Assembly: GCA_964515155.1 (NCBI GenBank)
Contig: CAZESK010000002.1
Coordinates: 10,950 to 74,949, forward strand
From: an uncultured Bifidobacterium sp.
Lineage (GTDB): Bacteria > Pseudomonadota > Gammaproteobacteria > Burkholderiales > Burkholderiaceae_D
DNA length: 64,000 bases
Direction: 5' to 3'
Notes under the pieces: model-generated
What the model was told of the DNA's origin: nothing
The model's database searches: none
The model's input: the letters and a program-made list of their open reading frames with translations, nothing else
Position numbers and translations under genes: made by a program
Shown here: positions 368 to 14,505 of the stretch, piece after piece
Layout of the letters: each line of letters opens with the position of its first letter
Numbering within the stretch: position 1 is the stretch's first letter

Positions 368-1249
368 TCAGCGGTGCAGCCGATCACGTATCTGCACCAC
401 GCTGGCCACCTCCCCGCCAGAAGCCTCAACCAGGCGGCGCGCGTTGCGTACCTGCTCGACATTGCCGACAGGATGGCCGAATGGCACATCCTCAAGCCCG
501 ACACGCAGGTGTCCGCCGCGCCGCACAATCTCCTCGGTCAATGGCGCGACTGTCGTACCCAATCCGGCCGCCATCCACGGCGCCCCCGGATCGAGCTCGT
601 CGAGTAATGTCAGATAGGCGTCGATCGCCCAGGGTCGCGGCGGAAAGCCGAAGGAGAAACGGTCGGAGAACATCAAGCGGTATACCGGCTGCGGCACGCC
701 GTCGTAACAGCGCGCCAGCGCCGCACCCAGTCTCATGAATCCGGGCTCATAGATCGCATACGACGGCACGATGCCGTGCCGCCGGCACAGGTCCAGCCCG
801 TGGCGCACGTGGCTGTCGGGATTGGCATAAATGAAGCCCTCACGCCCCTCGGGAAGCTCGTCGAGCAGGCTGATGTTGGTCGAGCCGGGATCGACGACCG
901 ACCATTCAAGCAGGCCACTCGCGGCGAGCTTCTCGACCGCCTCGAAGCGTCGCTTGGCCGTCATGGGCTCGTTCGCATCGACATCGCCGGTAAAGGGCAG
1001 CGTGCCATAGCAGATGACATCGACACGGGTGCGGATGCGCTCAATGATGGGTGCATAGATCTCGTACGCATCGCGCTGACGCCCGGTCGTCGGATCGTAC
1101 GGATGAAAGTGGATGATGGAGGCACCTTCGCCGGCGCAGGCCACGGCCTGCTCGACAATCTCGTCGGCAGTAATTGGGATGCCCGGCTGCCGCTCGCGCG
1201 ACCAGGGGCCATTGAGCGCGGCTTCGAGCCACACGGCGTGCTTATGCAT
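368..1249 (-). CDS. beta-keto acid cleavage enzyme family protein (BKACE / DUF849, 3-keto-5-aminohexanoate cleavage-like)
   Basis: 293-aa ORF. The pattern MHKHAVWLEAALNGPW...PITADEIV...GASIIHFHPYDP is typical of BKACE. AGGAGA SD lies upstream of the ATG at 1249. Confidence 0.8.
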   Translation of the reverse strand: MHKHAVWLEAALNGPWSRERQPGIPITADEIVEQAVACAGEGASIIHFHPYDPTTGRQRDAYEIYAPIIERIRTRVDVICYGTLPFTGDVDANEPMTAKRRFEAVEKLAASGLLEWSVVDPGSTNISLLDELPEGREGFIYANPDSHVRHGLDLCRRHGIVPSYAIYEPGFMRLGAALARCYDGVPQPVYRLMFSDRFSFGFPPRPWAIDAYLTLLDELDPGAPWMAAGLGTTVAPLTEEIVRRGGHLRVGLEDVPFGHPVGNVEQVRNARRLVEASGGEVASVVQIRDRLHR

Positions 1250-1438
1250 CGGTCAGTCTCCTGCTTCCGGTTTACATTGTGCGGCCCGCAGCGGGCGGCG
1301 TTGACGTCCCGATTGTAGAGGGGAAAACACCGTCCCGGCGTTGGCAACCAAGGTAACCATGACTGCGCCTTGCTAGAATCACCACGCGATCTCGATGCGA
1401 GGAGGACAAGCCATGACGATACGGATGACGGGGGCCAG

Positions 1439-1843
1439 ATGCTGAAGACACTGATCGTCTGCCTTGCCGGATGCGGCACACCCACCTCCATCAGTGACGA
1501 GCTGGGCAAGATATCGGCCGGATACCTTCGGACCTGTCACGAATTACAAGAGCTGCGTCGCGCTTTCTGTCCCGAGTGGCCAGCCCCACCGCTGCTCCAG
1601 TGCGTCAATGATGTCGAGCGCGAATTGCCGGCACGCTACCGCGGCGAGTTTCGCCAGGGAGTGGGCGTTTTGGCACAGCGCTTCGCGTCCGAGCTGCCTT
1701 CGGCCGTGGCTGCACGCTTTGCTGCGGAAGTCAGGGCTGCAGGTGGCGAGGCCGGCCCTGCCTGCGCGGCCATGGCTGCTGACATCGACCACCAGCGGCT
1801 GCAGTTGCGTAGTCAGTTAAGGAGTTTCAGCAAGGCGAAATGA
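1439..1843 (+). CDS. hypothetical Cys-rich protein, possible lipoprotein (MLKTLIVCLAGC)
   Basis: Internal ATG of ORF 1370..1843. Short N-terminal hydrophobic stretch with an LAGC lipobox-like motif. No recognisable family. A 10-codon mini-ORF (1413..1445) with a strong GAGGAGGA SD overlaps this start. Confidence 0.35.
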   Translation: MLKTLIVCLAGCGTPTSISDELGKISAGYLRTCHELQELRRAFCPEWPAPPLLQCVNDVERELPARYRGEFRQGVGVLAQRFASELPSAVAARFAAEVRAAGGEAGPACAAMAADIDHQRLQLRSQLRSFSKAK

Positions 1844-1856
1844 AGCTCGCGTGGCA

Positions 1857-2861
1857 TCAAAGCCCGGCGAGGCGGGAAGCCAGCGCCGCCAGTGGCGCGG
1901 CCTTGCGCCCGGTTTGCACGGCGTCCGGACTGTTGGCATTGCCCTGCAGCGCACGCTCAGCAATGCCATGCAGGATCGCCGACATGCGGAACAGGTTGAA
2001 GGCGAGGTAGAAGCGCCAGGCCTCATCATCGACTGTCTGCCGCCGCTCCGCGTACCAGCGCCGGTAAAGCGCCTCATCCGGAATGCCGAGCGACATGAGA
2101 TCGAGACCGCGGATGCCGCGCCACAAGTCATGTGGTATGTGCCAGCTCATGCAGTGGTATGCGAAGTCCGACAGCGGATCGCCGAGCGTTGACAACTCCC
2201 AGTCCAGCACGGCGATCACCCGGTCCGCCACCGGATCGAAAATCAGATTGTCGAGACGGAAGTCGCCATGAATCAGCGTTGCCGGCTGGGCCGGTGGCTG
2301 GTGCTCTGGCAGCCATGCCATCAAGCGGCGCATATCGTCAGTGGGCGGCAGTGAGGACTGCTCGAGCTGTCGCGACCAGCGATCAACCTGACGGCTGATA
2401 AAGCCGTCGCGCCGACCGTAGTCGGACAGGTCCACTGCGTCGATATCGACCTCGTGCAGCGCGGCGATCACGCGGTTCATGTCGCGGTATATGGCCTCCC
2501 GCTCCGCAGACGACATACCGGGCAGGGACTGGTCGACGATGACCCGACCCTCGACATAGGACATCAGGTAGAACGGCGTGCCGATGACGTCCGTCTCATC
2601 GCACCATGCAATGCCCTCGGGCACGGGCACCGCGCTGCCATGCAGCGCGCGAATCACCCGATACTCGCGATCGATCGCGTGCGCGGACTTCAGCAATACG
2701 CCGGGCGGCTGCTTGCGCAATACCATGCGCGCCTCGCCCGTATCGAGCAGGTAGGTGGGATTCGACTGTCCACCGGCCAGTGGCTTCATCTGCAGCATGC
2801 CGCCGGCAAAGCCGCGCGCACGCAGCCAGTCATGCAGTCGGATCTTGTCTGCGTCGTTCAC
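1857..2861 (-). CDS. phosphotransferase (APH/kinase-like) family protein, LvaA / ACAD10-N-terminal type
   Basis: 334 aa. Has the kinase catalytic loop LIHGDFRLDNLIF and VLDWELSTLGDP. Its start overlaps the upstream SDR stop by 4 nt. Confidence 0.85.
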   Translation of the reverse strand: MNDADKIRLHDWLRARGFAGGMLQMKPLAGGQSNPTYLLDTGEARMVLRKQPPGVLLKSAHAIDREYRVIRALHGSAVPVPEGIAWCDETDVIGTPFYLMSYVEGRVIVDQSLPGMSSAEREAIYRDMNRVIAALHEVDIDAVDLSDYGRRDGFISRQVDRWSRQLEQSSLPPTDDMRRLMAWLPEHQPPAQPATLIHGDFRLDNLIFDPVADRVIAVLDWELSTLGDPLSDFAYHCMSWHIPHDLWRGIRGLDLMSLGIPDEALYRRWYAERRQTVDDEAWRFYLAFNLFRMSAILHGIAERALQGNANSPDAVQTGRKAAPLAALASRLAGL

Positions 2862-3624
2862 AGCGAACTCACCAAATGGCCTCGGTCGACGGCGATGCAG
2901 GCACCAGTCATGCCAGCGCCTGCGTCGGAAGCTAGCAGCAGCAGCGGACCGTCGAGATCAGACAGTTGACCGAATTCGCGGGTTGGTACGCGCTGACGTA
3001 GCCGCTGACCCGGCTCGCTATCGAGAAAATCGCGATTCAGATCGGTCACGACATAGCCGGGCAACAACGCATTGATACGGATCTTGTATCGTGCAAGCTC
3101 CAGCGCCATGACCTTCGTTGCCTGCACAACGCCGGCTTTCGAGATCGCATACGGTGCCACACCGGCAGCGACGCGTTCGCCAAGAATGGAGGCAACGTTG
3201 ACGATACTGCCCGGGCGGCCCGCATCGCGTAACTGACGCGCGGCCTCGGTAGCGACCAGCCAACAGCCCTTGAGATTGGTGTCGATTACGCTGTCCCAAT
3301 CGTCTTCGGTCTGATCAAGCAGACCGCGCGTGACCGTAATTCCCGCGTTGTTGATCACGATATCGCAGGCGCCTGCTTGCGCAAACGCATCGCGCACGCT
3401 GGCCGCCGATGCAACATCCAGCGCAACCACGTCAGCGCGCCTGCCCTGCGCCTGTAACGCATCGGCGAGGGCACGCAGCTTGTCGGTGCGGCGCGCGGCC
3501 AGCACGACCTCGGCGCCAGCATCCGACAGCAGCTGCGCGAAATGCGCGCCAAAACCGCTGGAGGCGCCAGTCACCAGCGCGCGCTTGCCGTCGAGCCTGA
3601 GCATCGTATCGGTACGACCAGTAC

Positions 3625-3628
<4 letters not shown>
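2858..3628 (-). CDS. SDR family oxidoreductase
   Basis: 256 aa. LVTGASSGFG Rossmann motif, NNAG, and a YxxxK context (YAISKAG). 4-nt overlaps with both neighbours. Confidence 0.9.
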
Positions 3629-4791
<1,163 letters not shown>

Positions 4792-4806
4792 CGCGATTCA
4801 GTCCAT

Positions 4807-4835
4807 AAAAAAAGCCGACCCTTCAGGGACCGGCT
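4807..4835 (-). terminator. probable intrinsic terminator downstream of the PQQ dehydrogenase gene
   Basis: On the minus strand: AGCCGGTCCCtgaaGGGTCGGCT followed by T7. The stem has one internal loop. Confidence 0.45.
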
Positions 4836-4902
4836 AAAGCCAAAGGCGGAGTCAACATGAACGTGCCCCGACCGTTGCCGGCCGGGGTACGCACTACTTC
4901 AC

Positions 4903-6654
4903 TTACTTTGCCAGCTTGAACACCAGCACCGTTCCGCCCTGCGGAACGACCGTGTTGGTGCCACGTACGTGGTCTACTGCACTGGCCAGACGCTGGGCAT
5001 CGACACCCCAGCCAGCAACCACGGTAATGTACTGCTCGCCGTCGACTTCATAGGCGGCCGGCACACCGATCACGCCGGACGGCGCGTTGAAGGACCACAG
5101 CTCCTTGCCCGTCTTCGCGTTGAACGCACGGAACTTGCGGTCCGAGGTGCCGCCTGCGAACACAAGGTTACCACCGGTGACGAAGGTCGGCGTCCAGATC
5201 TGCTCCTTGAATTTCTGCGTCCAGACTTTCTTGCCGGTCGCAGGATCCCAAGCCTGGATCTCACCGATGTGGTCCTTCGCTCCCGGGCCAAGGCGGACGT
5301 TGGTCAGGACAGCCTCGAGGGGGAAGCCGATGAACAGATCACCCGCTTTGTAGGTGGTCTCCTCGCCCTTTGGCAACGCCGAGCACATGTTTTCGTTGGC
5401 CATAGTGTAGACCAAGCCGGTCTTCGGGCTATAGGCCTCCGGCAGCCAGTCCTTGCCGCCCCAGATCGACGGGCAGAAGGCAGCACCCTGCTTCAGCGAC
5501 GGCTTCTTCGACATATCGTACTCAGGACGGCCCGTCTTCGAGTCGACCTGCTTGAACACGTCATTGCCGACATAAGGCCACGCGTTATGGAATGCCAGTG
5601 CACCCGTCTTGGTACGCTCGAGCACATAGAAGTAGCCGTTACGTGCGGCACGCACGGCCAGCGGCGTCTTCTTGCCCTTGATGTTGGCGTCGAACAGCAG
5701 CGGCGGAGTGACTTCGTCCCAGTCCCACGAATCGTTGGGCGCGTATTGCTGATAGCCCTTCAGATCGCCGGTGCTTGCGTCGATCGCCATGGTCGAGCTG
5801 GCGAACAGGTTGTCGCCCTCGCGCAGATCAGGCGTCCACGGACCCGGGTTGCCGGTACCCCAGTAGGCCGTGTTGGTTTTCGGATCGTAAGTGCCGGTGA
5901 CCCAGACCGAACCGCCGCCCGTCTTGTACGAGCCGTTGTTGGGCCAGGTATCGCCGCCCATTTCATCCGGCGCAGCGATGGTGTGGCGACGCCATGCGAG
6001 CTTGCCGGTCTCGGCATCGACACCCGCGACAAAGCCCCGGATACCGTATTCGCCGCCAGACACGCCGACCATGATCTTGCCCTTGGCCGCCAGGGGAGCC
6101 AGCGTCATGTAGTAGCCGGTCTTCCAGTTCTCGATCTGCGTCTGCCAGAGCACCTTGCCGGTCTTGGCATCGAGCGCGATCAGGAAGCAATCGGTGGTGG
6201 CCACATAGACCTTGTCACCATACAGCGCCACGCCGCGGTTGGTCGGGTGCAGCTGGAATAGTTCTGCGGGGATCTCTTTTTTATAGCGCCACAGTTCCTG
6301 GCCGGTCTTGGCGTTGAGCGCAATGACCTGGTTCTGCGGGGTCGTGACATACATGTAGCCGTCATTAACAATCGGTGGCGACTGGTGACCCTCGGTCACG
6401 CCGGTCGAGTACGACCATGCCAGCTGCAGCTTGCCGATGTTCTTGTCATTGATCTTGTCCAGCGCCGAGTAGCCCCAGCTACCGTAATTGCCGCGCCAAC
6501 TCAGCCAGTTGCGCGCTTCCGGATTCTGCAGGCGGGCATCCGTGACCGGGTTGTAGGGCATCGCCTGGCTCTTCGCAGCCGACGGGCTTTCGGCCACTGC
6601 CATCAGGGGCAGCAGGCCAAGTGCCAGTGCGAGGTACTTGGTACGCAGTCTCAT
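4903..6654 (-). CDS. PQQ-dependent dehydrogenase, methanol/ethanol family, periplasmic (atypical: no vicinal Cys-Cys)
   Basis: 583 aa with a Sec signal (MRLRTKYLALALGLLPLMAVAES). Motifs VGVSGGEYGIRG, WGTGNPGPW and PNDSWDWDEV align to the metal/PQQ site of MDH/ADH quinoproteins. GGAGGAGAG SD is present. Confidence 0.85.
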   Translation of the reverse strand: MRLRTKYLALALGLLPLMAVAESPSAAKSQAMPYNPVTDARLQNPEARNWLSWRGNYGSWGYSALDKINDKNIGKLQLAWSYSTGVTEGHQSPPIVNDGYMYVTTPQNQVIALNAKTGQELWRYKKEIPAELFQLHPTNRGVALYGDKVYVATTDCFLIALDAKTGKVLWQTQIENWKTGYYMTLAPLAAKGKIMVGVSGGEYGIRGFVAGVDAETGKLAWRRHTIAAPDEMGGDTWPNNGSYKTGGGSVWVTGTYDPKTNTAYWGTGNPGPWTPDLREGDNLFASSTMAIDASTGDLKGYQQYAPNDSWDWDEVTPPLLFDANIKGKKTPLAVRAARNGYFYVLERTKTGALAFHNAWPYVGNDVFKQVDSKTGRPEYDMSKKPSLKQGAAFCPSIWGGKDWLPEAYSPKTGLVYTMANENMCSALPKGEETTYKAGDLFIGFPLEAVLTNVRLGPGAKDHIGEIQAWDPATGKKVWTQKFKEQIWTPTFVTGGNLVFAGGTSDRKFRAFNAKTGKELWSFNAPSGVIGVPAAYEVDGEQYITVVAGWGVDAQRLASAVDHVRGTNTVVPQGGTVLVFKLAK

Positions 6655-6749
6655 TTTCTTCTCTCCTCCATCGTTAAAATTCGCCGCTGGTGGCGGCGCC
6701 TTGCAATCAGCAGCCCGTGTGGAGGCCGCTGAAATCTTCCCCCGGCCGA

Positions 6750-7301
6750 TCAGACCCCCGGCTTGTTAGAAAATCCTCCGGCGACGACCAGGAAGCCGTC
6801 CTTCTCTGCCAGCGGTACGAAGGGCAGGCTCTTGGTGGCCGGCCCCTTCGCAACGCTGCCGTCGCCAGGGTTGAATTTCGAGAAATGGCAGAAACACATC
6901 AGCAGCTTCTCCGACGCGACGAACTCGGTCACGTCACAGGCCTGGTGCGTGCAGATCGACGAATAGGCCAGTACGCCACCCACCGAGCGCTGCTTCATCT
7001 CGTCGCTCATCTCTGCCGGATCCATGCGGATCAGCAGCAGCTTGTTCAGGCGAGAGTCACTGCGCGCAGCTTTCTGGGCAAGGTCGTAGGGCCAGACAAG
7101 CACCGGCTTGCTACCCGCCTTGATATCGCCAGCCTTCAGCGGTGCGGTGGCATCGCCCTTCGCGGGCACCAACAGGTCGCCCTCGACGACACCCTGCGCC
7201 TGCTGTGCGCCGGCCGGCGCGGCCTGCAGCGCACAGCATCCGGCAACCGAGGCGCCGGTGGCCTTGAGCAGCAGGCGGCGGCGCGAATCAACTGCATCCA
7301 T
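6750..7301 (-). CDS. Tat-exported Rieske (2Fe-2S) protein
   Basis: Twin-arginine signal (SRRRLLLKATGASVAG). Rieske ligands CTH...(17 aa)...CFCH. Start set at the internal ATG (MDAVDSRRR) preceded by GAGGAGAAG; the ORF could extend to 7328. Confidence 0.8.
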   Translation of the reverse strand: MDAVDSRRRLLLKATGASVAGCCALQAAPAGAQQAQGVVEGDLLVPAKGDATAPLKAGDIKAGSKPVLVWPYDLAQKAARSDSRLNKLLLIRMDPAEMSDEMKQRSVGGVLAYSSICTHQACDVTEFVASEKLLMCFCHFSKFNPGDGSVAKGPATKSLPFVPLAEKDGFLVVAGGFSNKPGV

Positions 7302-7342
7302 GTTCTTCTCCTCTGTCATGTCATTCATTGGTTATCCGCAGA

Positions 7343-9067
7343 TCAGGACGCACGCCACGTGCGCTCGGCCTCTTCCCATGCGCCCAGCGGCTGCAGGTCG
7401 GGCACCCAAGCGAGTCCGGACTTGCCATCGGAGGACTTCGCCTCGGGAGAGACCAACACGTCGAGCAGCGCCGGCAGCTTGTCAAGCGCGCGTTCGATGG
7501 CAGGGCCCAGATCCTCGGCCCGCTCCACGCGCTCGGCATGCATGCCGAAGGCACGCGCCATCGCCGCGTAGTCCGATAACTGCAGCCGGGTCCCAACGAC
7601 CTTGCCGTGGCTGTCCTGCTGGTCATGCACCTCGATCTGCCACGCACCGTTGTTCGCCACCACGATCAGGGGCTTGGCGCCGTGCCGAACGGCCGTATCG
7701 ATCTCCATCGCATTGAAGCCAAACGCGCCATCGCCGGTGGCGACCAGCACCTGTCGCTCCGGATATGCGAGGCTGGCCGCGATGCCGAATGCGGTACCGA
7801 TACCGATGCAGCCCAGCGAACCGGGATCCAGATAAGCGGAAGAGGACAAGCCGACACGGGCGAAGCTCAGAAAATCACCACCGTCGGCGACGACCACGGC
7901 GTCCGGCGCAAGGCGCTGCTGCAGCTCATGCAGCACGCGGTTCGGATGGATGCGGCCTTCCTTGTCCGACGGCGCGGCAGCCATCGTTGAGCGCAGCTTG
8001 GTCGCGCGCTCTTCATGCTGGCGACGCAGGCTCTGTGCCCAGTCACGGTCGGTTGCGGCTTTGCGTGAGCCAGCGTGTGAGAGCATGGCGGCAATCGATG
8101 CCGCGGGTGTGGCCAGCAGCTCGGCATCACCGCGGCGGTTGTCGCGCAGCTCGGAAGCCGTGCCGGCGATACGCAAAAAGCGGGCACCCTTGAACACAGC
8201 CGGCGAGCCATAGGCCAGCTGGAAATCAAGCTTGCGGCCGATGGTGATGACGAGGTCGGCATCGCCCATCACCGAGCCACGCATCGCACCAACAAAAGAT
8301 GGGTGACTGTCGGGTACCAGGCCGCGACTCTCCCCGGTATCCAGATAGACCGCGCCGGTCGCGTCGAGCAGGCGCAGTAGTTCGGGGCCGGCTCCGCGCG
8401 CACCGCGCCCGGTAATGACAAGCGGCTTTTTCGCATTCCACAGCAGCTCGACGGCGGCGGCCACGCTGGCGGCGTCTGGTTGCGTGACGGCGACCGGCTT
8501 GGGACGAAAATGCTCGTTCAGCTGCAATACCTTCGGAATGACGCCGCGCTGGGTGTCGACCGGGAAGTCGATATAGACCGGACCCGGGTCACCGCCCTCA
8601 CCCAGCGCGCGCGCCACGGCCTCGTCGAGTTCCTGCAGCACCAGTGCAGGTTCGCGTACGGTGCGCGCATAGCGGGTGATGGGCCGGACCATGTCAATGT
8701 GCGGCATGTCCTGCAGCGCGCCACGGTTTTCCTGCGCACGCGGCGGGCCACCGGAGAGTACTAGTACCGAAGCGCGGGAAGTGTGTGCATTCGCGATGCC
8801 GGTCATCGCATTGGTCATGCCGGGACCCGCCGTGACGAGAGCCACGCCCAGGCGACCCGTCAGCTCGCTGTGCGCATGCGCCATGTAGACGGCGGCGCGC
8901 TCATCGCGTACGTCGATGATGCGGATGCCCTCAGCATCACAGCGCATCCAGATCGGCATGATGTGGCCACCGCATAGCGCGAAGATGCGGTCGACACCGC
9001 GCGCCTTCAGGAAGCGGGCGATCACGCCAGCAGCCATATCGGCATGAAGTTCAGGCGCCTGGATCAT
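7343..9067 (-). CDS. thiamine-diphosphate-dependent enzyme (acetolactate synthase / oxalyl-CoA decarboxylase / 2-hydroxyacyl-CoA lyase superfamily)
   Basis: 574 aa. N-terminal Pyr domain (VALVTAGPGMTNAMTGIANA) and ThDP-binding motif GDGAFGFNAMEIDTAVRHGAKPLIVVANNGAW. Its ATG overlaps the upstream ligase stop (ATGA). Confidence 0.85.
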   Translation of the reverse strand: MIQAPELHADMAAGVIARFLKARGVDRIFALCGGHIMPIWMRCDAEGIRIIDVRDERAAVYMAHAHSELTGRLGVALVTAGPGMTNAMTGIANAHTSRASVLVLSGGPPRAQENRGALQDMPHIDMVRPITRYARTVREPALVLQELDEAVARALGEGGDPGPVYIDFPVDTQRGVIPKVLQLNEHFRPKPVAVTQPDAASVAAAVELLWNAKKPLVITGRGARGAGPELLRLLDATGAVYLDTGESRGLVPDSHPSFVGAMRGSVMGDADLVITIGRKLDFQLAYGSPAVFKGARFLRIAGTASELRDNRRGDAELLATPAASIAAMLSHAGSRKAATDRDWAQSLRRQHEERATKLRSTMAAAPSDKEGRIHPNRVLHELQQRLAPDAVVVADGGDFLSFARVGLSSSAYLDPGSLGCIGIGTAFGIAASLAYPERQVLVATGDGAFGFNAMEIDTAVRHGAKPLIVVANNGAWQIEVHDQQDSHGKVVGTRLQLSDYAAMARAFGMHAERVERAEDLGPAIERALDKLPALLDVLVSPEAKSSDGKSGLAWVPDLQPLGAWEEAERTWRAS

Positions 9068-10740
9068 GCCGTCACCGCCACTTTCTTCTGCTTTTTCTGC
9101 GCACGCAGGTCGATCACGCCCGGTTGCGTGCGCGGGTCAACACCCGGAGGGAAGATATGGATCTTCTGCACCTTGGCCGAGGTGCCCATCGGCAGGCTAT
9201 CGACGAACAGTACCCAGCCCGGTGCCTTGAAGTAGGCCATGCGCTCGTAAGCCCAGTCGAACAGGTCCTGCGCCAGCGCGTGCTTCGCGACCTCGCTGCC
9301 GATGTCCGCATCGTCTTTCACCACAACGCAGGCCATGACTTCTTCTTCGCGCACTTCATCCGGTGCGGCCAGCACCGCGACCTGCCTGGCCTTCGGGTGT
9401 GCATTCAGGCAGGCCTCGATCTCGGCAGCGGCAATGTTTTCACCGGCGCGGCGAATGATGTTCTTCTTTCGATCCATGAAATAGAACATGCCCGACGCGT
9501 CGCGCACGGCGGCATCACCGGTGTGGAACCAGCCACCCTTCCAGGCTTCCTCAGTCGCTTCGTCGTTCTTCAGGTAGCCTGAGAAGAAACCCTTGCGCGG
9601 TGCTTCGGCGCTGTGTCGGATGACGAGTTCGCCGGGCGTATCTGCCGGCAGCTCGTTACCGTTCTCGTCGATAATCCTGGCCTCGACCCACGGATTGACG
9701 CGACCGAAGGAGCGCGTATGAACCAGCCTGGGTTCATGGTTGTCGCTGATCAGACGCCCCACTTCCGTCATCGACCACATCTCGATCACCGGGAGGTTGA
9801 ACCGCTTCTCGAAAAGCTCATGCAAGCTGGGCTCAACACCCGCGCACAGCGCAAAGCGCACCGAGTGCTGCCGCTCCTCCGGGCACTCCGGCAGCTTCAG
9901 CAAAATATTCGGGATCACACCCTGGAACTGCACGACGGTTGCGCGCGTGGCGACCAGGTCTTTCCACCAGGTGCTCGCATGGAAGCGGTCGGGGAAGATG
10001 AGGCAACCACCCGACATCAACATCGCCGGCAGCGAAATCGACAGGCAGTTTGCATGATGTAAAGGTAGCGGGTTGACCAGGCGCTCCACCCCTTCATGCA
10101 TCGTGAGCCTACCGCCGAGACCCAGATAGCAGGCACCGAAGGAGTGGAAGTATTCGTTGGTCAGGATGCAGCCCTTGGGCTTGCCGGTGGTACCCGAGGT
10201 GTAGAGCAGTGCGGCCTCGGTTTGCGCATCGGGCTGTCCTGCGCATGCAGCTGTTTTCGGCGCTGGAATACGCTCTGGAAAACGGTCGAAGGAGACACGG
10301 CTGCAGGCGCCATTGAGCATCCCGACCACGGACTCGAGATCCTCGCTTCGGGCATCGACGCCGACGATCAGTGAGGATTCCGAGTGTTCGACAACGTAGT
10401 GAATTTCTTCCCGGCGGTAGTCCGGATTGATCGGCACCACCGACACGCCAAGCGCATTGAGTGCGAAGTAGTGGAAGACAAACTCGGGACGCTGCTCGAA
10501 AAGAATGGATACGCGGTGACCGATGCCGTAGCCGGCGGCAGCGTAGATGGCGCGCAAGCGCTCGACCTCGGCCAGGGTATCGCGGTAGCTGACTTCCCAT
10601 CCGTCCGGATGGTAGGCACGACCGGCGGCCGGCGGCACGGCATAGGCCGAGTGCTCCGGATAGGTCGCGGCCGCCTTGTGCAGTGACTGGTACAGGGTAC
10701 CGTAGTGACTGGCGTCCATCTGTTGGCTTTCCTTGTTCAT
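9064..10740 (-). CDS. AMP-dependent synthetase/ligase (acyl-CoA synthetase family)
   Basis: Motifs LLYTSGTTGKPKG, GWFHTGD and a C-terminal lysine region. The 653-aa ORF was trimmed to MNKESQQMDAS because the extension overlaps the MFS gene. An alternative ATG lies at 10719. Confidence 0.85.
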   Translation of the reverse strand: MNKESQQMDASHYGTLYQSLHKAAATYPEHSAYAVPPAAGRAYHPDGWEVSYRDTLAEVERLRAIYAAAGYGIGHRVSILFEQRPEFVFHYFALNALGVSVVPINPDYRREEIHYVVEHSESSLIVGVDARSEDLESVVGMLNGACSRVSFDRFPERIPAPKTAACAGQPDAQTEAALLYTSGTTGKPKGCILTNEYFHSFGACYLGLGGRLTMHEGVERLVNPLPLHHANCLSISLPAMLMSGGCLIFPDRFHASTWWKDLVATRATVVQFQGVIPNILLKLPECPEERQHSVRFALCAGVEPSLHELFEKRFNLPVIEMWSMTEVGRLISDNHEPRLVHTRSFGRVNPWVEARIIDENGNELPADTPGELVIRHSAEAPRKGFFSGYLKNDEATEEAWKGGWFHTGDAAVRDASGMFYFMDRKKNIIRRAGENIAAAEIEACLNAHPKARQVAVLAAPDEVREEEVMACVVVKDDADIGSEVAKHALAQDLFDWAYERMAYFKAPGWVLFVDSLPMGTSAKVQKIHIFPPGVDPRTQPGVIDLRAQKKQKKVAVTA

Positions 10741-10766
10741 GATGCTTGTACTTGCGGAATGTCGTT

Positions 10767-12080
10767 CTATCGATTCACGACGTTGGCCGGCAGGCGCAGT
10801 ACCATCAGCGCGCCGATGGCCACGATGCCGGAGAAGAGGTAAAGGCTGACGTTTGGCGTACCGGTCAGATCGGTCAGCCAGCCGACCAGCGAGGTGCTGG
10901 CCATGCCAGCTACGTTGCCGAGCGAGTTCACCAGCGCGATGCCTGCAGCAGCGCCCGCACCAGTCAGGAAGGCCGGTGGCAGGGTCCAGAAAGCGGCCTG
11001 CGCAGTCGATGCACCTGCCGCGCACAGCACGAGCCCAAGCATCGCGACGGTCACGCCGATATCCGGTGTGGCGACCACGGCAAGGCCAACGGCAGTCACG
11101 AAACAGGGCACGGCGGTGTGCCAGCGGCGCTCGCCATGACGGTCGGCGCTGGCATTGCCATAGAACATGGCGATGATGGCGACGGAATAGGGAATCATCG
11201 TCAGCAAACCGATCTGCAGCGGATCGGCAAAGCCCAGCTGCTTGACCAGGGTCGGCATCCAGAAGCTGGTGATGTAAATGGCCGCGGCGATGCAGAAATA
11301 CGCCACGCCGAGCATCCAGACGCGACCGCTGCGTAATGCTCCCAGTGCGCTGGCATGCTGGGTTCCGATGCCGGCCGCAGTTTCGTTCGCGAGATCGGCG
11401 GTGATGCGTGCCTTTTCGTCGGCGCTGAGCCAGCGCGCATCCTCGACCCGGTTATCGAGGAATTTCAAGATAGCCAAGCCCAGCAGGATGGACGGTGTGG
11501 TTTCGATGATGAACAGCCACTGCCATCCGCGCAGGCCGCCGACATCGCTCATGCTGGCGAGGATCCATCCCGACAGCGGGCCGCCGATGATGTTGGACAT
11601 CGGTATTGCGGCAAGGAAGAGCGCGATGATGCGCCCGCGCCATGCAGCCGGAAACCAGTAGGTCAGGTAGAGCAGCACACCGGGAATGAAGCCGGCCTCG
11701 GCCACGCCGAGCAAAAAACGCAGCACGTAGAACTGGGTTGGCGTGGTAACGAAGGCCATCGCCCCACCGAGCAGACCCCAGGTCAGCATGATGCGCGCGA
11801 TCCAGACCTTGGCGCCGACCTTGTGCAACAGGATGTTGCTCGGCACCTCGAAGATCACGTAGCCGAGAAAGAAAATCCCTGCACCGAGGCCATAGACAGT
11901 ATTGCTCCAGCCCAGGTCGGCCAGCATATTGAGCTTGGCGAAGCCGACATTCACGCGGTCCAGATAGGCCGCGAGATAACAGATGCAGAGAAATGGAACG
12001 AGCCTGAGTGCGACCTTACGGTAAAGGGTCTGCGCGTCGAGCGACCCCGCGACCTCGATCGTCTGCGTGTTGGTTTGCAT
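10767..12080 (-). CDS. MFS transporter (anion:cation symporter-like)
   Basis: Multi-TM protein with YLDRVNVGFAKL near TM1, typical of ACS-family MFS. Start set at MQTNTQ, preceded by GGGAGA. Confidence 0.85.
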   Translation of the reverse strand: MQTNTQTIEVAGSLDAQTLYRKVALRLVPFLCICYLAAYLDRVNVGFAKLNMLADLGWSNTVYGLGAGIFFLGYVIFEVPSNILLHKVGAKVWIARIMLTWGLLGGAMAFVTTPTQFYVLRFLLGVAEAGFIPGVLLYLTYWFPAAWRGRIIALFLAAIPMSNIIGGPLSGWILASMSDVGGLRGWQWLFIIETTPSILLGLAILKFLDNRVEDARWLSADEKARITADLANETAAGIGTQHASALGALRSGRVWMLGVAYFCIAAAIYITSFWMPTLVKQLGFADPLQIGLLTMIPYSVAIIAMFYGNASADRHGERRWHTAVPCFVTAVGLAVVATPDIGVTVAMLGLVLCAAGASTAQAAFWTLPPAFLTGAGAAAGIALVNSLGNVAGMASTSLVGWLTDLTGTPNVSLYLFSGIVAIGALMVLRLPANVVNR

Positions 12081-12205
12081 GATGTCTCCCCCATGGGACC
12101 CGGCTGCGTCACGCACGCCTGCCGGCCCAGATTGTTCTTATCGATGCGGTCCGGGGTCTGCGCCCCTCATGGACTGCGGTATTCGGTCCTGCCTCATCCG
12201 CCGCT

Positions 12206-12877
12206 TCAGCGGGCGACTGCCGCCTCCTGATCCAACTGGCGCAGCAACGAATCGGTTGCGTTATTCACATGGGCACGCGACAAGCGCTCGGCCTCGGCCA
12301 CATCGCCGCTCGCCACGGTACGCAGGATGGCTTCATGTTCGGCCCAGATGTCGCGCGGGGACTCACCCTGCATCAGCACCGCACCCATCACGCACCGCAG
12401 GTACGTCCAGTGCGGGGAGGCTGTCTCCGCGATCAGCGGGTTCCCCGACAGGTCGTAGAGAAAATGATGAAAGGCCATGTCGGCGGCGATCATGTCCGAG
12501 ATCGACTGCCTCGCAACAGCCTCTCTGCCGCGAAGGATGTACTCGGTGCCTTCCCGCTGCGCGCGCGGATCGGCGCGGCGTGCGGCCTTGACAACCGCGA
12601 GCGCATCCAGGCTGGCGCGAATCTCATACACATTGCGTACCTTGTGCTCTTCGAGCGGCGCGACCATCAGCCCCCGCCCCGGGGCGCTGATCAGGACACC
12701 CTCGTTGCGCAGCAGCAGGAGCGCCTGCTGCACTGGCTGACGCGAAACGCCCAGCTTCTCGGCGATTTCTTCCTGAACGAGCCGGGCATCGGGGCCGAAC
12801 TGGCCGGCCTCGATCCGCGACAAGATCGCCTCATACACCTGATCAACCAGCGAAGGCTGGGAGCGAAGGATTTCCAT
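12206..12877 (-). CDS. GntR family transcriptional regulator (FadR/FCD type)
   Basis: 223 aa. N-terminal winged HTH (LVQEEIAEKLGVSRQPVQQALLLLRNEGVL) and a helical C-terminal domain. Confidence 0.9.
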   Translation of the reverse strand: MEILRSQPSLVDQVYEAILSRIEAGQFGPDARLVQEEIAEKLGVSRQPVQQALLLLRNEGVLISAPGRGLMVAPLEEHKVRNVYEIRASLDALAVVKAARRADPRAQREGTEYILRGREAVARQSISDMIAADMAFHHFLYDLSGNPLIAETASPHWTYLRCVMGAVLMQGESPRDIWAEHEAILRTVASGDVAEAERLSRAHVNNATDSLLRQLDQEAAVAR

Positions 12878-12936
12878 GGCTCGGGCTCCAATCGGGTACG
12901 TATTGCAATGTTTCTAACGGAAAACATCCGTCCGGT

Positions 12937-12973
12937 ATTCAGAATTCTGAACTCCGAACTCTGAATTCAGAAT
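12937..12973. promoter_or_regulatory. candidate operator: two GAATTC-centred palindromes and a 9-bp direct repeat
   Basis: TTCAGAATTCTGAA (12938-12951) and TCTGAATTCAGA (12960-12971). ATTCAGAAT occurs twice (12937-12945 and 12965-12973). AT-rich patch in the divergent gntR / di-heme gene intergenic region. Confidence 0.4.
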
Positions 12974-13077
12974 GCAGTAAGTGTAATCCCGTTTTTTTCA
13001 ACGCGTCAATACCCTCCTTGCCGGTCCCGATTGGGCGGTAGTCAGCCATGTGAACCCGTGGGAAGATACGAGGCACC

Positions 13078-14505
13078 ATGCGCCCCTCACACCTCATCCG
13101 CCCCGTCGCTGCGGTCTTGCTGGTGGCCGGCCTCGCCGCCGTTCACCTGCGCGCCAGCACGAACACCTCCCCGCCATCGCGACCGGTAGCGCCACACACC
13201 GCCTACCTCCAGCCCGTGCCCGGCCTGACGCCAGACCAGCAACAGACCTTCCGCGCCGGCGAGAAAGTGTTCAACAACTTCTGGATCGCCATACCGAACG
13301 AGGTGATCTCACAGTGGTGGGATTTATCGCAGCCGGGACCCGGGGGTGGCGGCTGGGGATTGGGACCGACCTTCCTTGCGACTTCCTGCGTTTCCTGCCA
13401 CGTGCAGGCCGGGCGCGGACGCGTCCCCGATACCGGTGCCGGCCCGCTGTTCCAGCAGACACTGCGCCTCTCCCTTCCCGGCGATGGTCCGCACGGTGGC
13501 CCGAATCCGGATCCGCACTACGGGCTGCAGTTGGAGCCCTTTGACATCATCAAAAGCAAGGACCAGACGCGACAGCCCGGTGAAGGCGAGGTTCACATCA
13601 CGTGGGTCACGAGCCAGTTTCGCTTCCCCGATGGCGAGACGGTTCCCTTGCGCAAGCCCGTCATCCGCATCGAGAAGCTGAACTTCGGCCCGCTCGCTGC
13701 GGGATTGATGACCTCGCTGCGCAATACGCAGGCACTGGTTGGCCTCGGGTACTTGCAGGCGGTGAGCGAGGAAGACATTCTCGCGCTGGCCGAACTGCAG
13801 AAATCGCAGGGACTCAACGGCCGGCCGAACTATGTGCGCGACGACATACACGACCGCATCGCACTGGGCCGCTTCGGATGGAAAGCAAACCAGCCTTCGC
13901 TGCGGCAGCAGATCGCCGGTGCCTTTCACAACGACATCGGTATTACCTCATCGCTCTACCGAGCACAGAACTGCCCGCCGGTGCAGAAAGACTGTCATCT
14001 CGAGAAAGATCCGGAGAAGCCGGAGCTCTCCGACGAACTGTGGGGACAGGTGGCTTTCTGGGCCATGGCGCTCGACGCGCCGGCGCCAGTCGACACGGCG
14101 AACCCGGCGGTGCAGCGCGGCGAGAAGCTGTTCCATGCAGCCAAGTGCGCGCAGTGCCATGTGCCCGAACTGAAGACGGGGGCCTTCCCCGAACTGCCGG
14201 CACTGGCGAACAAGCGCATCCGCCCCTACACCGACCTGTTGCTGCACGACATGGGGCCGGATCTGGCCGACGGCCGCCCGGACTTCCGCGCCGGCGGCTC
14301 CGACTGGCGCACGCCGCCGCTCTGGGGCATCGGCCGCTCGAAGCAGGTCAACGGCAGCACACACTTCCTGCATGACGGCCGAGCGCGCAACCTGGTTGAA
14401 GCCATCCTCTGGCACGGCGGTGAAGCGACGGCATCACGCGAGCATTTCGCTAAGTTGTCGAAGCAGGAGCGGCAGGAGTTGATTGCGTTTCTGGAGGCGT
14501 TGTAG
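13078..14505 (+). CDS. di-heme c-type oxidoreductase (DUF1111 / thiol-oxidoreductase-like)
   Basis: 475 aa with a signal peptide and two CxxCH motifs (CVSCH, CAQCH). C-terminal HDGRARNLVEAILWHGGEA is typical of the DUF1111 family. Confidence 0.8.
   Translation: MRPSHLIRPVAAVLLVAGLAAVHLRASTNTSPPSRPVAPHTAYLQPVPGLTPDQQQTFRAGEKVFNNFWIAIPNEVISQWWDLSQPGPGGGGWGLGPTFLATSCVSCHVQAGRGRVPDTGAGPLFQQTLRLSLPGDGPHGGPNPDPHYGLQLEPFDIIKSKDQTRQPGEGEVHITWVTSQFRFPDGETVPLRKPVIRIEKLNFGPLAAGLMTSLRNTQALVGLGYLQAVSEEDILALAELQKSQGLNGRPNYVRDDIHDRIALGRFGWKANQPSLRQQIAGAFHNDIGITSSLYRAQNCPPVQKDCHLEKDPEKPELSDELWGQVAFWAMALDAPAPVDTANPAVQRGEKLFHAAKCAQCHVPELKTGAFPELPALANKRIRPYTDLLLHDMGPDLADGRPDFRAGGSDWRTPPLWGIGRSKQVNGSTHFLHDGRARNLVEAILWHGGEATASREHFAKLSKQERQELIAFLEAL

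Follow-up and report, generated by a model that had tools for sequence, protein, structure and literature searches.

Does the run of minus-strand genes in this window (the whole 64,000-nucleotide stretch analysed, from contig CAZESK010000002.1) encode one catabolic pathway, and if so for what kind of substrate? The run is headed by a gntR gene and combines a transporter of the major facilitator superfamily (MFS), an AMP-forming acyl-CoA ligase, a thiamine diphosphate (ThDP) enzyme, a Rieske protein, a pyrroloquinoline quinone (PQQ) dehydrogenase, an acyl-CoA dehydrogenase (ACAD), a short-chain dehydrogenase/reductase (SDR), a kinase of the aminoglycoside phosphotransferase (APH) fold and a beta-keto acid cleavage enzyme (BKACE). 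The initial annotation took these ten same-strand genes for a single island matched by no characterised pathway. All ten open reading frames (ORFs) are present where annotated and their families match, but a plus-strand ORF at ~1439-1843 interrupts the run. A literature search found no published description of the whole combination (ThDP lyase, PQQ/Rieske pair, ACAD-SDR-kinase), although each block has a characterised counterpart.

The best reading, to which we assign a probability of roughly 55%, is that the island is one GntR-controlled catabolic unit with three modules, serving short (~C4-C7) alcohols or diols and the hydroxy or oxo acids that arise from these, in which oxygen at C2 or C4 would block ordinary beta-oxidation. 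Underlying this reading are the protein families, their diagnostic residues, the repeated co-location of the genes and an operator common to the units. The PQQ dehydrogenase would oxidise the alcohol or diol towards the acid in the periplasm, with the Tat-exported Rieske protein, and perhaps in turn a di-haem protein, accepting the electrons, and the pair would fill the role of MpdB and MpdC in the Actinomycetospora 2-methylpropane-1,2-diol pathway. The MFS transporter would import the acid, and the ligase, presumably the same one for both CoA branches, would make the CoA ester. In one branch the lyase would act on a 2-hydroxyacyl-CoA that is short and probably tertiary, like 2-hydroxyisobutyryl-CoA, and split it into formyl-CoA and a ketone or aldehyde. 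In the other, the SDR would reduce a 4-oxoacyl-CoA, the APH kinase would phosphorylate the 4-hydroxyl, and the ACAD, of the type carrying an HCMR motif, would eliminate the phosphate to give a 2-enoyl-CoA for beta-oxidation.

The core module of transporter, ligase and lyase is the best-grounded part of this reading. The ThDP gene (7343-9067; minus strand, as are all features below unless stated) scores 823.2 bits against NF058623 (cut-off 600), has the TPP_enzyme_N, TPP_enzyme_M and TPP_enzyme_C domains, and matches the structure of the Actinomycetospora 2-hydroxyacyl-CoA lyase AcHACL (PDB 7pt1) at E 3.1e-181 over residues 11-570 of 574. Its E56, L118, Q119, I478 and E479 correspond to AcHACL E65, L127, Q128, I492 and E493, and all five are invariant in 69/69 full-length orthologues from related loci. 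In AcHACL these positions are described as the acid/base E493 with Q128, the size-limiting L127 and I492, and the cofactor-activating E65, and a C-terminal lid (residues 556-590) admits acyl groups no longer than C5 (PMC8760513). The lid is kept in the window lyase, and the tail past the lid start has 39-49 residues in 68/69 orthologues. These features support an AcHACL-type lyase predicted to split a 2-hydroxyacyl-CoA into formyl-CoA and a ketone or aldehyde, in line with the C-C cleavage that the initial annotation gave to this gene.

The lyase substrate is probably short and tertiary, of the 2-hydroxyisobutyrate kind, because the size-limiting residues and the lid are kept, hcm-type mutase genes neighbour some orthologues, and the range of the characterised enzyme includes 2-hydroxy-2-methylbutyryl-CoA (PMC7176365) as well as 2-methylglyceryl-CoA (PMC13327070). 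The mutase neighbours occur in four related loci (L057, L063, L068 and L072; L numbers denote related loci, G numbers genomes and C numbers contigs), where a lyase orthologue lies with hcm-type B12-binding/methylmalonyl-CoA-mutase-type, MeaB and PaaK-like ligase genes. Such loci combine the two exits known for 2-hydroxyisobutyryl-CoA.

Disposal of formyl-CoA has candidates elsewhere in the source genome (G000; 2.44 Mb, 140 contigs, 92% complete), two contigs of which carry family III CoA-transferases in the vicinity of formate dehydrogenase genes. This is compatible with formyl-CoA disposal, though not specific to formyl-CoA. On contig C73 (3-4154) a fragment of such a transferase directly precedes a formate-dehydrogenase-like frame that contains a single in-frame TGA, possibly encoding selenocysteine, and on contig C13 the main formate dehydrogenase alpha gene has a second CoA-transferase 13 kb away.

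The ligase gene (9064-10740; Pfam AMP-binding, 195 bits) probably starts at ATG 10740, since a longer 653-aa ORF to 11025 would overlap the MFS gene. It overlaps the lyase gene by 4 nt (ATGA), the coupling reported in the initial annotation. Its best solved relatives are oxalyl- and malonyl-CoA synthetases, which are distant (E 3e-45). The ligase passes no NCBIfam equivalog model, and none of its 19 solved-structure matches at E<=1e-30 is a 2-hydroxyisobutyric acid (2-HIBA)-CoA ligase. The MFS gene (10767-12116, likely start ATG 12080; Pfam MFS_1, 143 bits) encodes a transporter of the anion:cation symporter type that scores ~311 bits against the NCBIfam HpaX and D-galactonate-transporter subfamilies, under their cut-offs, and is presumed to import the acid. 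Relatives with a second, unrelated ligase type have TRAP transporters in its place. A symporter of this type and a ligase coupled to the lyase fit the uptake and CoA activation of an organic acid, as had been proposed.

The second module resembles the lva operon for levulinate-type acids and consists of the ACAD (3625-4791), SDR (2858-3628) and APH (1857-2861) genes, joined by 4-nt overlaps (ATGA for ACAD/SDR, GTGA for SDR/APH) that bear out the earlier description. The ACAD, of LvaC/ACAD10-11 type, has 4hr3 and ACAD11 (2wbi, 8v3u) as its best solved relatives, and its R243, H251-C-M-R254 and D368 align with R626, the HCMR motif H634-R637 and D753 of ACAD11. R626, the HCMR motif and the catalytic Asp D753, which stands in place of Glu, are features special to ACAD10/11 and LvaC (PMC12440821). 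The R-x7-HCMR pattern is present in 24/24 ACAD homologues of at least 41% identity, and the YDGPSE signature in 21/24, the pattern missing three at 42-44% identity. The enzyme is presumed to convert 4-phosphoacyl-CoA to 2-enoyl-CoA and phosphate.

The APH protein (Pfam APH, 193 bits) is of the kind found at the N-terminus of ACAD10/11 and matches PDB 3dxp (E 1e-103) and the ACAD11 structure 8v3v (E 5e-69). Its HGDFRLDN aligns with HGDFKLDN of 8v3v, the stretch with the catalytic D220 and N225 of ACAD11, and the Arg of its SRQV aligns with chain residue R175, the CoA-contacting R176 of the paper's numbering. An IDRE motif is also conserved, to which R86 of the ACAD11 paper maps with uncertainty. 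This is presumably a 4-hydroxyacyl-CoA kinase, and it is partnered with the ACAD, which lies two genes upstream with the 4-nt overlaps between. The SDR (Pfam adh_short, 168 bits) passes no NCBIfam cut-off and is presumed to be an LvaD-like 4-oxoacyl-CoA reductase. Together these assignments agree with the 4-hydroxyacyl-CoA processing suggested in the initial annotation, as judged from the R-x7-HCMR pattern, the catalytic Asp and the match of the APH protein to the ACAD11 kinase domain.

Identity to genes of an lva-type operon in L097 is 70% for the ACAD and 52% for the SDR; that operon encodes a sigma54 PrpR_N regulator, an LvaA-type APH, DUF6285, a His-phosphatase, an ACAD and an SDR. Against its LvaA-type kinase the window APH reaches just 24% identity, and the kinase type therefore differs. 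Contig C47 (4682-8728; L084) carries a canonical cluster of enoyl-CoA hydratase, His-phosphatase, APH and HCMR-type ACAD genes, with APH 51% and ACAD 34% identical to the island copies. With this canonical cluster present, the island's APH and ACAD appear to be a specialised extra copy. In Rhodocyclaceae-type loci (L062, L064, L066, L049) a lyase occurs with a distant HCMR-type ACAD, an SDR, a PEBP-family protein and a PhaC-like alpha/beta hydrolase, and no APH is seen. Pantoate and 2,4-dihydroxy acids were considered as single substrates and rejected on chemical reasoning, as a quaternary C2 or C3 leaves the ACAD no proton to abstract.

The periplasmic module lies between the other two. The PQQ dehydrogenase (4903-6654) scores 562.5 bits against TIGR03075 (cut-off 480.05), and among solved structures it comes closest to the quinoprotein ethanol dehydrogenase 6zcv (E 7e-105). 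A vicinal Cys-Cys disulfide next to PQQ is a hallmark of the methanol/ethanol quinoprotein family. The island enzyme is without it, reading LHPTNRG where 6zcv has CCDVINRG. It has D311-W-D313, which we take to be the D-x-D pattern of lanthanide-dependent quinoproteins. A pqqC gene is found in the source genome. The Rieske [2Fe-2S] protein (6750-7328; Pfam Rieske) has a twin-arginine motif, SRRRLLLK, near its N-terminus and is of the bc type, with the Thermus respiratory Rieske protein (1nyk/3fou) as best solved relative (E 2e-26). Its four cluster ligands and two disulfide cysteines (C126, H128, C131, C145, C147, H148) are invariant in 8/8 relatives. It is the presumed electron acceptor of the PQQ enzyme, a role for which a literature search found no published report of a Rieske protein as quinoprotein partner. 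An aldehyde dehydrogenase adjoins the Rieske-PQQ pair in L059, L079, L094 and L101, which fits oxidation from alcohol to acid.

A gene for a di-haem cytochrome c of the DHOR family (13078-14505, plus strand; Pfam DHOR, 277 bits), which lies outside the coordinates of the initial annotation, diverges from gntR with an operator region common to both, and may belong to the island. The same divergent layout occurs beside GntR-Rieske-PQQ in L093, and homologues are found in L002, L022 and L029. In L022 and L029 the DHOR homologue adjoins the lyase and no PQQ gene is seen. In some other relatives (L091, L092, L094, L097) the neighbours of Rieske-PQQ or lva-type units include sigma54 activators that have PrpR_N or GAF domains, and L091 has in addition an outer-membrane MetA-pathway-type channel.

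The association of the modules was followed in relatives of the lyase, for which one genome per species was scanned, giving 794 matches of which the best 80 loci were kept; neighbours were scored by tblastn within 10 kb. Many of these loci are short contigs, and only 38 extend at least 5 kb on both sides of the lyase. Almost all of the best 80 are Burkholderiales-type records. GntR is found in 50 of them, the window-type ligase in 43, as an orthologue of at least 55% identity adjoining the lyase, and the second ligase type in 21. Nine loci have the PQQ enzyme, the Rieske gene accompanying it in 9/9. A close ACAD (at least 60% identity) is present in eight, a more distant HCMR-type ACAD in three and APH in seven, while PQQ and close ACAD are both present in 3/80.

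In a family sample of 151 genomes, the lyase and this PQQ clade are each found in nine and both in eight, within ~10 kb of each other in seven of the eight. An ACAD orthologue is present in 21 genomes, including 7/9 with the lyase, and in all seven it lies within 12 kb of it. Gene orders vary among the genomes and two unrelated ligase types are in use. In L001, L004, L005 and L007 the lyase, ACAD, SDR and APH genes are directly adjacent, with the ACAD ~30 bp past the lyase. The window order, with Rieske-PQQ inserted, recurs in L002 and L006, and in L003, L059, L079 and L086-L088 the Rieske-PQQ pair is upstream on the other strand. G041 has it on another contig (L093) with its own GntR, beside the di-haem gene. 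On a FastTree phylogeny of 84 lyase sequences, no fewer than five changes are required for ACAD adjacency and no fewer than nine for PQQ adjacency; a row was scored as unknown where the flank was shorter than 5 kb and held no match. The tree left out six loci whose DNA was already represented (L081, L083, L103, L085, L089, L101) and lyase matches with fewer than 500 aligned residues or below 60% identity. BKACE apart, the modules of the initial annotation are thus found together repeatedly in relatives, in several arrangements, and are grouped beyond chance.

A candidate operator also links the modules. The GntR/FCD regulator gene (12206-12877; Pfam GntR 54 bits, FCD 85 bits) and the di-haem gene are separated by a candidate GntR operator (12939-12971) that contains an exact palindrome, TCTGAATTCAGA, at 12960-12971 and two copies with two mismatches at 12939 and 12946. 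In a larger set of 102 related loci plus the window (1.66 Mb, some loci covering the same DNA), this 12-mer has 45 exact and 24 one-mismatch copies, or 69 sites in 54 sources, and for 67/69 a homologue of GntR, lyase, ligase, Rieske or MFS follows no more than 500 bp downstream. Copies with at most one mismatch precede Rieske-PQQ in L059/L089, L079, L086, L087 and L093, and a copy lies 71 bp before the MFS-ACAD-SDR-APH unit of L088. The island copy is the only exact one in the 2.44-Mb source genome, and G076 has just two exact copies in its 6.5 Mb, one before a ligase/TRAP-lyase unit and one before a Rieske-PQQ unit. GntR is probably an autoregulated repressor of the island. As an in silico counterpart of the regulon test proposed in the initial annotation, the distribution of the candidate operator favours one regulon, the window itself being less clean. 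The periplasmic oxidation step, described earlier as separate but attached, is indeed attached and has the same operator in relatives, so that "separate" understates the link. A one-mismatch copy at prfB in the source genome is read as chance. Extra copies in the AT-richer G086 and G141 are near ABC transporter, ankyrin and Sel1 genes or within coding sequence and give no pathway clue; a control pattern for the operator search also matches in G086.

The terminator after the PQQ gene (4813-4835) is present as first described, but "weak" does not suit it: the 9-bp stem contains 6 G-C pairs, a T7 run follows, and the element is kept in three relatives (L006, L002, L093). From the T-run to the ACAD start is ~22 nt, and since the terminator is kept in this position, the Rieske-PQQ cassette seems to have been inserted between lyase and ACAD with its terminator included.

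Several observations weigh against a single three-module unit. No operator copy with up to two mismatches lies before the ACAD or Rieske gene in the window, and with the terminator 22 nt before the ACAD, ACAD-SDR-APH would need read-through, as we presume, or another promoter. GntR-ligase-lyase occurs alone in most related loci, so that the accessory modules are not obligatory, and 14 of the 21 ACAD-bearing genomes are without the lyase. Five of the lyase, PQQ or ACAD carriers in the family sample belong to the same genus, and their counts are not independent. A plain kinase-dependent route does not account for G086, G116, L002 and L003, where the ACAD is beside the lyase without SDR or APH; the sole APH found in G086 and G116 is the canonical paralogue. 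The window lyase and 68/69 orthologues have Cys in place of AcHACL Q41, which partners E493 and is not described as catalytic in the AcHACL study (PMC8760513). Hydantoinase_B, an acetone carboxylase subunit family, is not found in the 92%-complete genome, which counts against the scheme if the lyase product is acetone. Finally, that product leaves without CoA, and no single CoA ester would pass through both branches.

The persistent link between lyase and ACAD can be read in three ways: as parallel handling of related compounds, as proposed here, as rescue of 2-hydroxyacyl-CoA arising from beta-oxidation, or as a linear route through a 4-oxo acid. None of the three accounts simply for the lyase-ACAD loci without SDR or APH (G086, G116, L002, L003), for the Hydantoinase_B family not being found, or for the family III CoA-transferases close to formate dehydrogenase genes. 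That a lyase and a kinase/ACAD pair should serve one compound class has a precedent in mammals, in which 4-hydroxy acids are reported to take two routes, by kinase and ACAD or by beta-, then alpha-, then beta-oxidation (PMC12440821). Modelled on these two reported routes, the rescue reading makes the island a 4-hydroxy-acid catabolon with both exits: secondary 4-hydroxy- or 4-oxoacyl-CoAs would pass through SDR, kinase and ACAD, and those that escape, for example tertiary ones, would be converted by a single beta-oxidation cycle into a short 2-hydroxyacyl-CoA, which the lyase would remove, mirroring the minor mammalian route. The recurrence of lyase and ACAD together agrees with it, as does the lyase limit of C5 or less, which suits one beta-oxidation round on C6-C7 acids. 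It is nonetheless unlikely, because translation of the ligase is coupled to that of the lyase and most loci have GntR-ligase-lyase on its own, pointing to direct activation of a free 2-hydroxy acid, and because the island is without hydratase, 3-hydroxyacyl-CoA dehydrogenase and thiolase.

Next in order of probability, and doubtful too, is one linear pathway. A tertiary 2-hydroxy-dicarboxylate, of the 2-hydroxy-2-methylglutarate kind, would be activated at C1 and cleaved to formyl-CoA and a free 4-oxo acid such as levulinate, which the same ligase would re-activate for conversion by SDR, kinase and ACAD to an enoyl-CoA. Each cytoplasmic gene would then be used once, and the lyase product would have a fate in a genome where the acetone carboxylase family was not found. 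The solved relatives nearest to the ligase are dicarboxylate ligases (the oxalyl- and malonyl-CoA synthetases), though at the distance noted above; the ACAD follows the lyase by ~30 bp in the closest relatives, L001, L004, L005 and L007; and lyase-ACAD adjacency recurs in at least five places on the lyase tree. We know of no natural source of such a dicarboxylate, however, and most loci hold ligase and lyase without the lva-like genes. In AcHACL the lid with L127 and I492, all kept here, excludes acyl groups longer than C5 (PMC8760513), so that a C6 dicarboxylyl group would need changes that are not seen.

It is also improbable, and ranked after the linear route, that the modules happen to sit side by side without a common function, one variable region having gathered a lyase operon, an alcohol-oxidation cassette and an lva-like operon. 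The terminator after the PQQ gene would suit such a collection, and each module also occurs alone, as in G026 with Rieske-PQQ-aldehyde dehydrogenase and no lyase, in the 14 ACAD genomes without the lyase, and in most lyase loci, which are without both others; in G041 Rieske-PQQ is on a separate contig. Chance assembly is at odds, however, with the eight of nine lyase genomes that carry this PQQ clade, with the ACAD lying no more than 12 kb from the lyase in 7/7 lyase genomes having one, in varied orders and with different ligases, and with an operator that precedes all three kinds of unit and whose exact copies in G000 and G076 are unique to the cluster. The version with all ten genes, in which the BKACE (368-1249; Pfam PF05853) is a second C-C cleaving step, has in its favour the shared strand, the position ~600 bp downstream of APH and the action of BKACE enzymes on beta-keto acids with acetyl-CoA (Pfam PF05853), but is very improbable given that BKACE is near the lyase in 0/80 loci and absent from the 102-locus set bar two entries of the window's own DNA, that a plus-strand ORF lies between BKACE and APH, and that no operator copy is found in 1245-1860.

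The three-module unit without BKACE would thus span ~1857-13077, perhaps to 14505. It is bounded by an amidase and ABC-transporter operon past BKACE on one side and by an acetyl-CoA synthetase and housekeeping genes past the di-haem gene on the other. The small plus-strand ORF (~1439-1843), between BKACE and APH and convergent with APH, has a lipoprotein-type N-terminus, MLKTLIVCLAGC; it is without a family match and has no counterpart in any related locus.

Among known systems, the core and periplasmic modules are closest to the cluster of Actinomycetospora chiangmaiensis DSM 45062, in which GntR, lyase, HCL, MpdC and MpdB are induced on 2-HIBA (PMC7176365). The two share an orthologous lyase, a GntR regulator, a CoA ligase directly beside the lyase and an alcohol-oxidising step (PMC7176365, PMC8760513). 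They differ in host, a betaproteobacterium of Burkholderiales kind rather than an actinobacterium, and in the ligase, which here is not HCL. In Actinomycetospora the alcohol is oxidised by the cytoplasmic GMC enzyme MpdB together with MpdC, whereas the island has a periplasmic PQQ enzyme and Rieske protein and the window has no aldehyde dehydrogenase. The island also adds an MFS importer and the lva-like module, and its lyase has Cys for Q41.

The lva operon of Pseudomonas putida KT2440 and P. citronellolis LA18T likewise has SDR, kinase and HCMR-type ACAD genes beside an acyl-CoA ligase (PMC6692424), and the layout of the P. citronellolis cluster (PMC6692424) matches the operon of L097. Unlike the lva operon, which is under the sigma54 activator LvaR (PrpR-type), the island has a GntR/FCD regulator, a kinase of ACAD10/11 type, the order ACAD-SDR-APH, and a linkage to the lyase and PQQ enzyme. 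No LvaB/DUF6285 or other small ORF with a family match is found in the island, an 82-aa ORF at 1544-1792 being without a Pfam match. With mammalian ACAD10 and ACAD11 (PMC12440821, PMC11342911) the island kinase and ACAD share the equivalents of D220/N225, R626, HCMR and D753, and ACAD11 is among the best solved relatives of both; here, in contrast, these are two genes with the SDR between. Quinoprotein ethanol dehydrogenases of the PedE/PedH type (6zcv, 6zcw) are periplasmic members of the same TIGR03075 family and the best solved relatives of the PQQ enzyme, which differs from them in being without the vicinal Cys-Cys and in having a Tat-exported Rieske protein, not a c-type cytochrome, as adjacent partner.

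In the lyase studies consulted the enzyme is treated as actinobacterial only, with proteobacteria mentioned for other enzymes. The loci described here extend its reach to Burkholderiales-type genomes, and the repeated, co-regulated link of lyase, lva-like module and PQQ/Rieske oxidase points to an undescribed route. Small-genome aquatic bacteria could by this means use short branched or oxygenated acids and diols from fuel oxygenates, isoprenoids or photo-oxidised organic matter. For one-carbon biotechnology, in which the lyase is wanted, the loci supply natural variants of it, and the Rieske protein is a candidate for an unreported redox partner of a quinoprotein. The records behind L059 (Noviherbaspirillum suwonense DSM 26001) and L079 (Variovorax brevis J22R133) are cultured strains, and such cultured carriers make the predictions directly testable. 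A broader generalisation, rather speculative as a whole, is that AcHACL-type alpha-oxidation is widespread in freshwater and soil Burkholderiales under GntR and TCTGAATTCAGA, forms one pathway with the lva-like module through 4-phosphoacyl-CoA, and is fed by a quinoprotein without Cys-Cys that passes electrons to a soluble high-potential Rieske protein, perhaps with a di-haem cytochrome, and not to cytochrome c.

DNA near-identical to the island is present in aquatic, riverine, estuarine and freshwater metagenome runs, and contigs of four runs show the same arrangement in other samples. The ACAD/PQQ junction is bridged by contigs from two runs of different studies, and the gene arrangement is therefore not an assembly artefact. 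Six related records (L001-L005, L047) are titled "uncultured Bifidobacterium sp." yet hold a Burkholderiales-type cluster with a lyase identity of 79-86%, and these labels are probably wrong. Gene picking by longest ORF gives many antisense artefacts in G+C-rich DNA, and a GC3 filter is unfit for the lower-GC relatives. L105-L107 (G086, G141) are listed as the same genus, with a G+C of 46-48% vs ~62% in the window, and their ACAD proteins are 87% identical. Just before the window, contig bases 1-10949 (L083) hold an aliphatic-amidase-type operon with AmiC-like binding proteins, a branched-chain-type ABC transporter, a CN-hydrolase, a CbbQ/VWA pair and an AmiR/ANTAR regulator.

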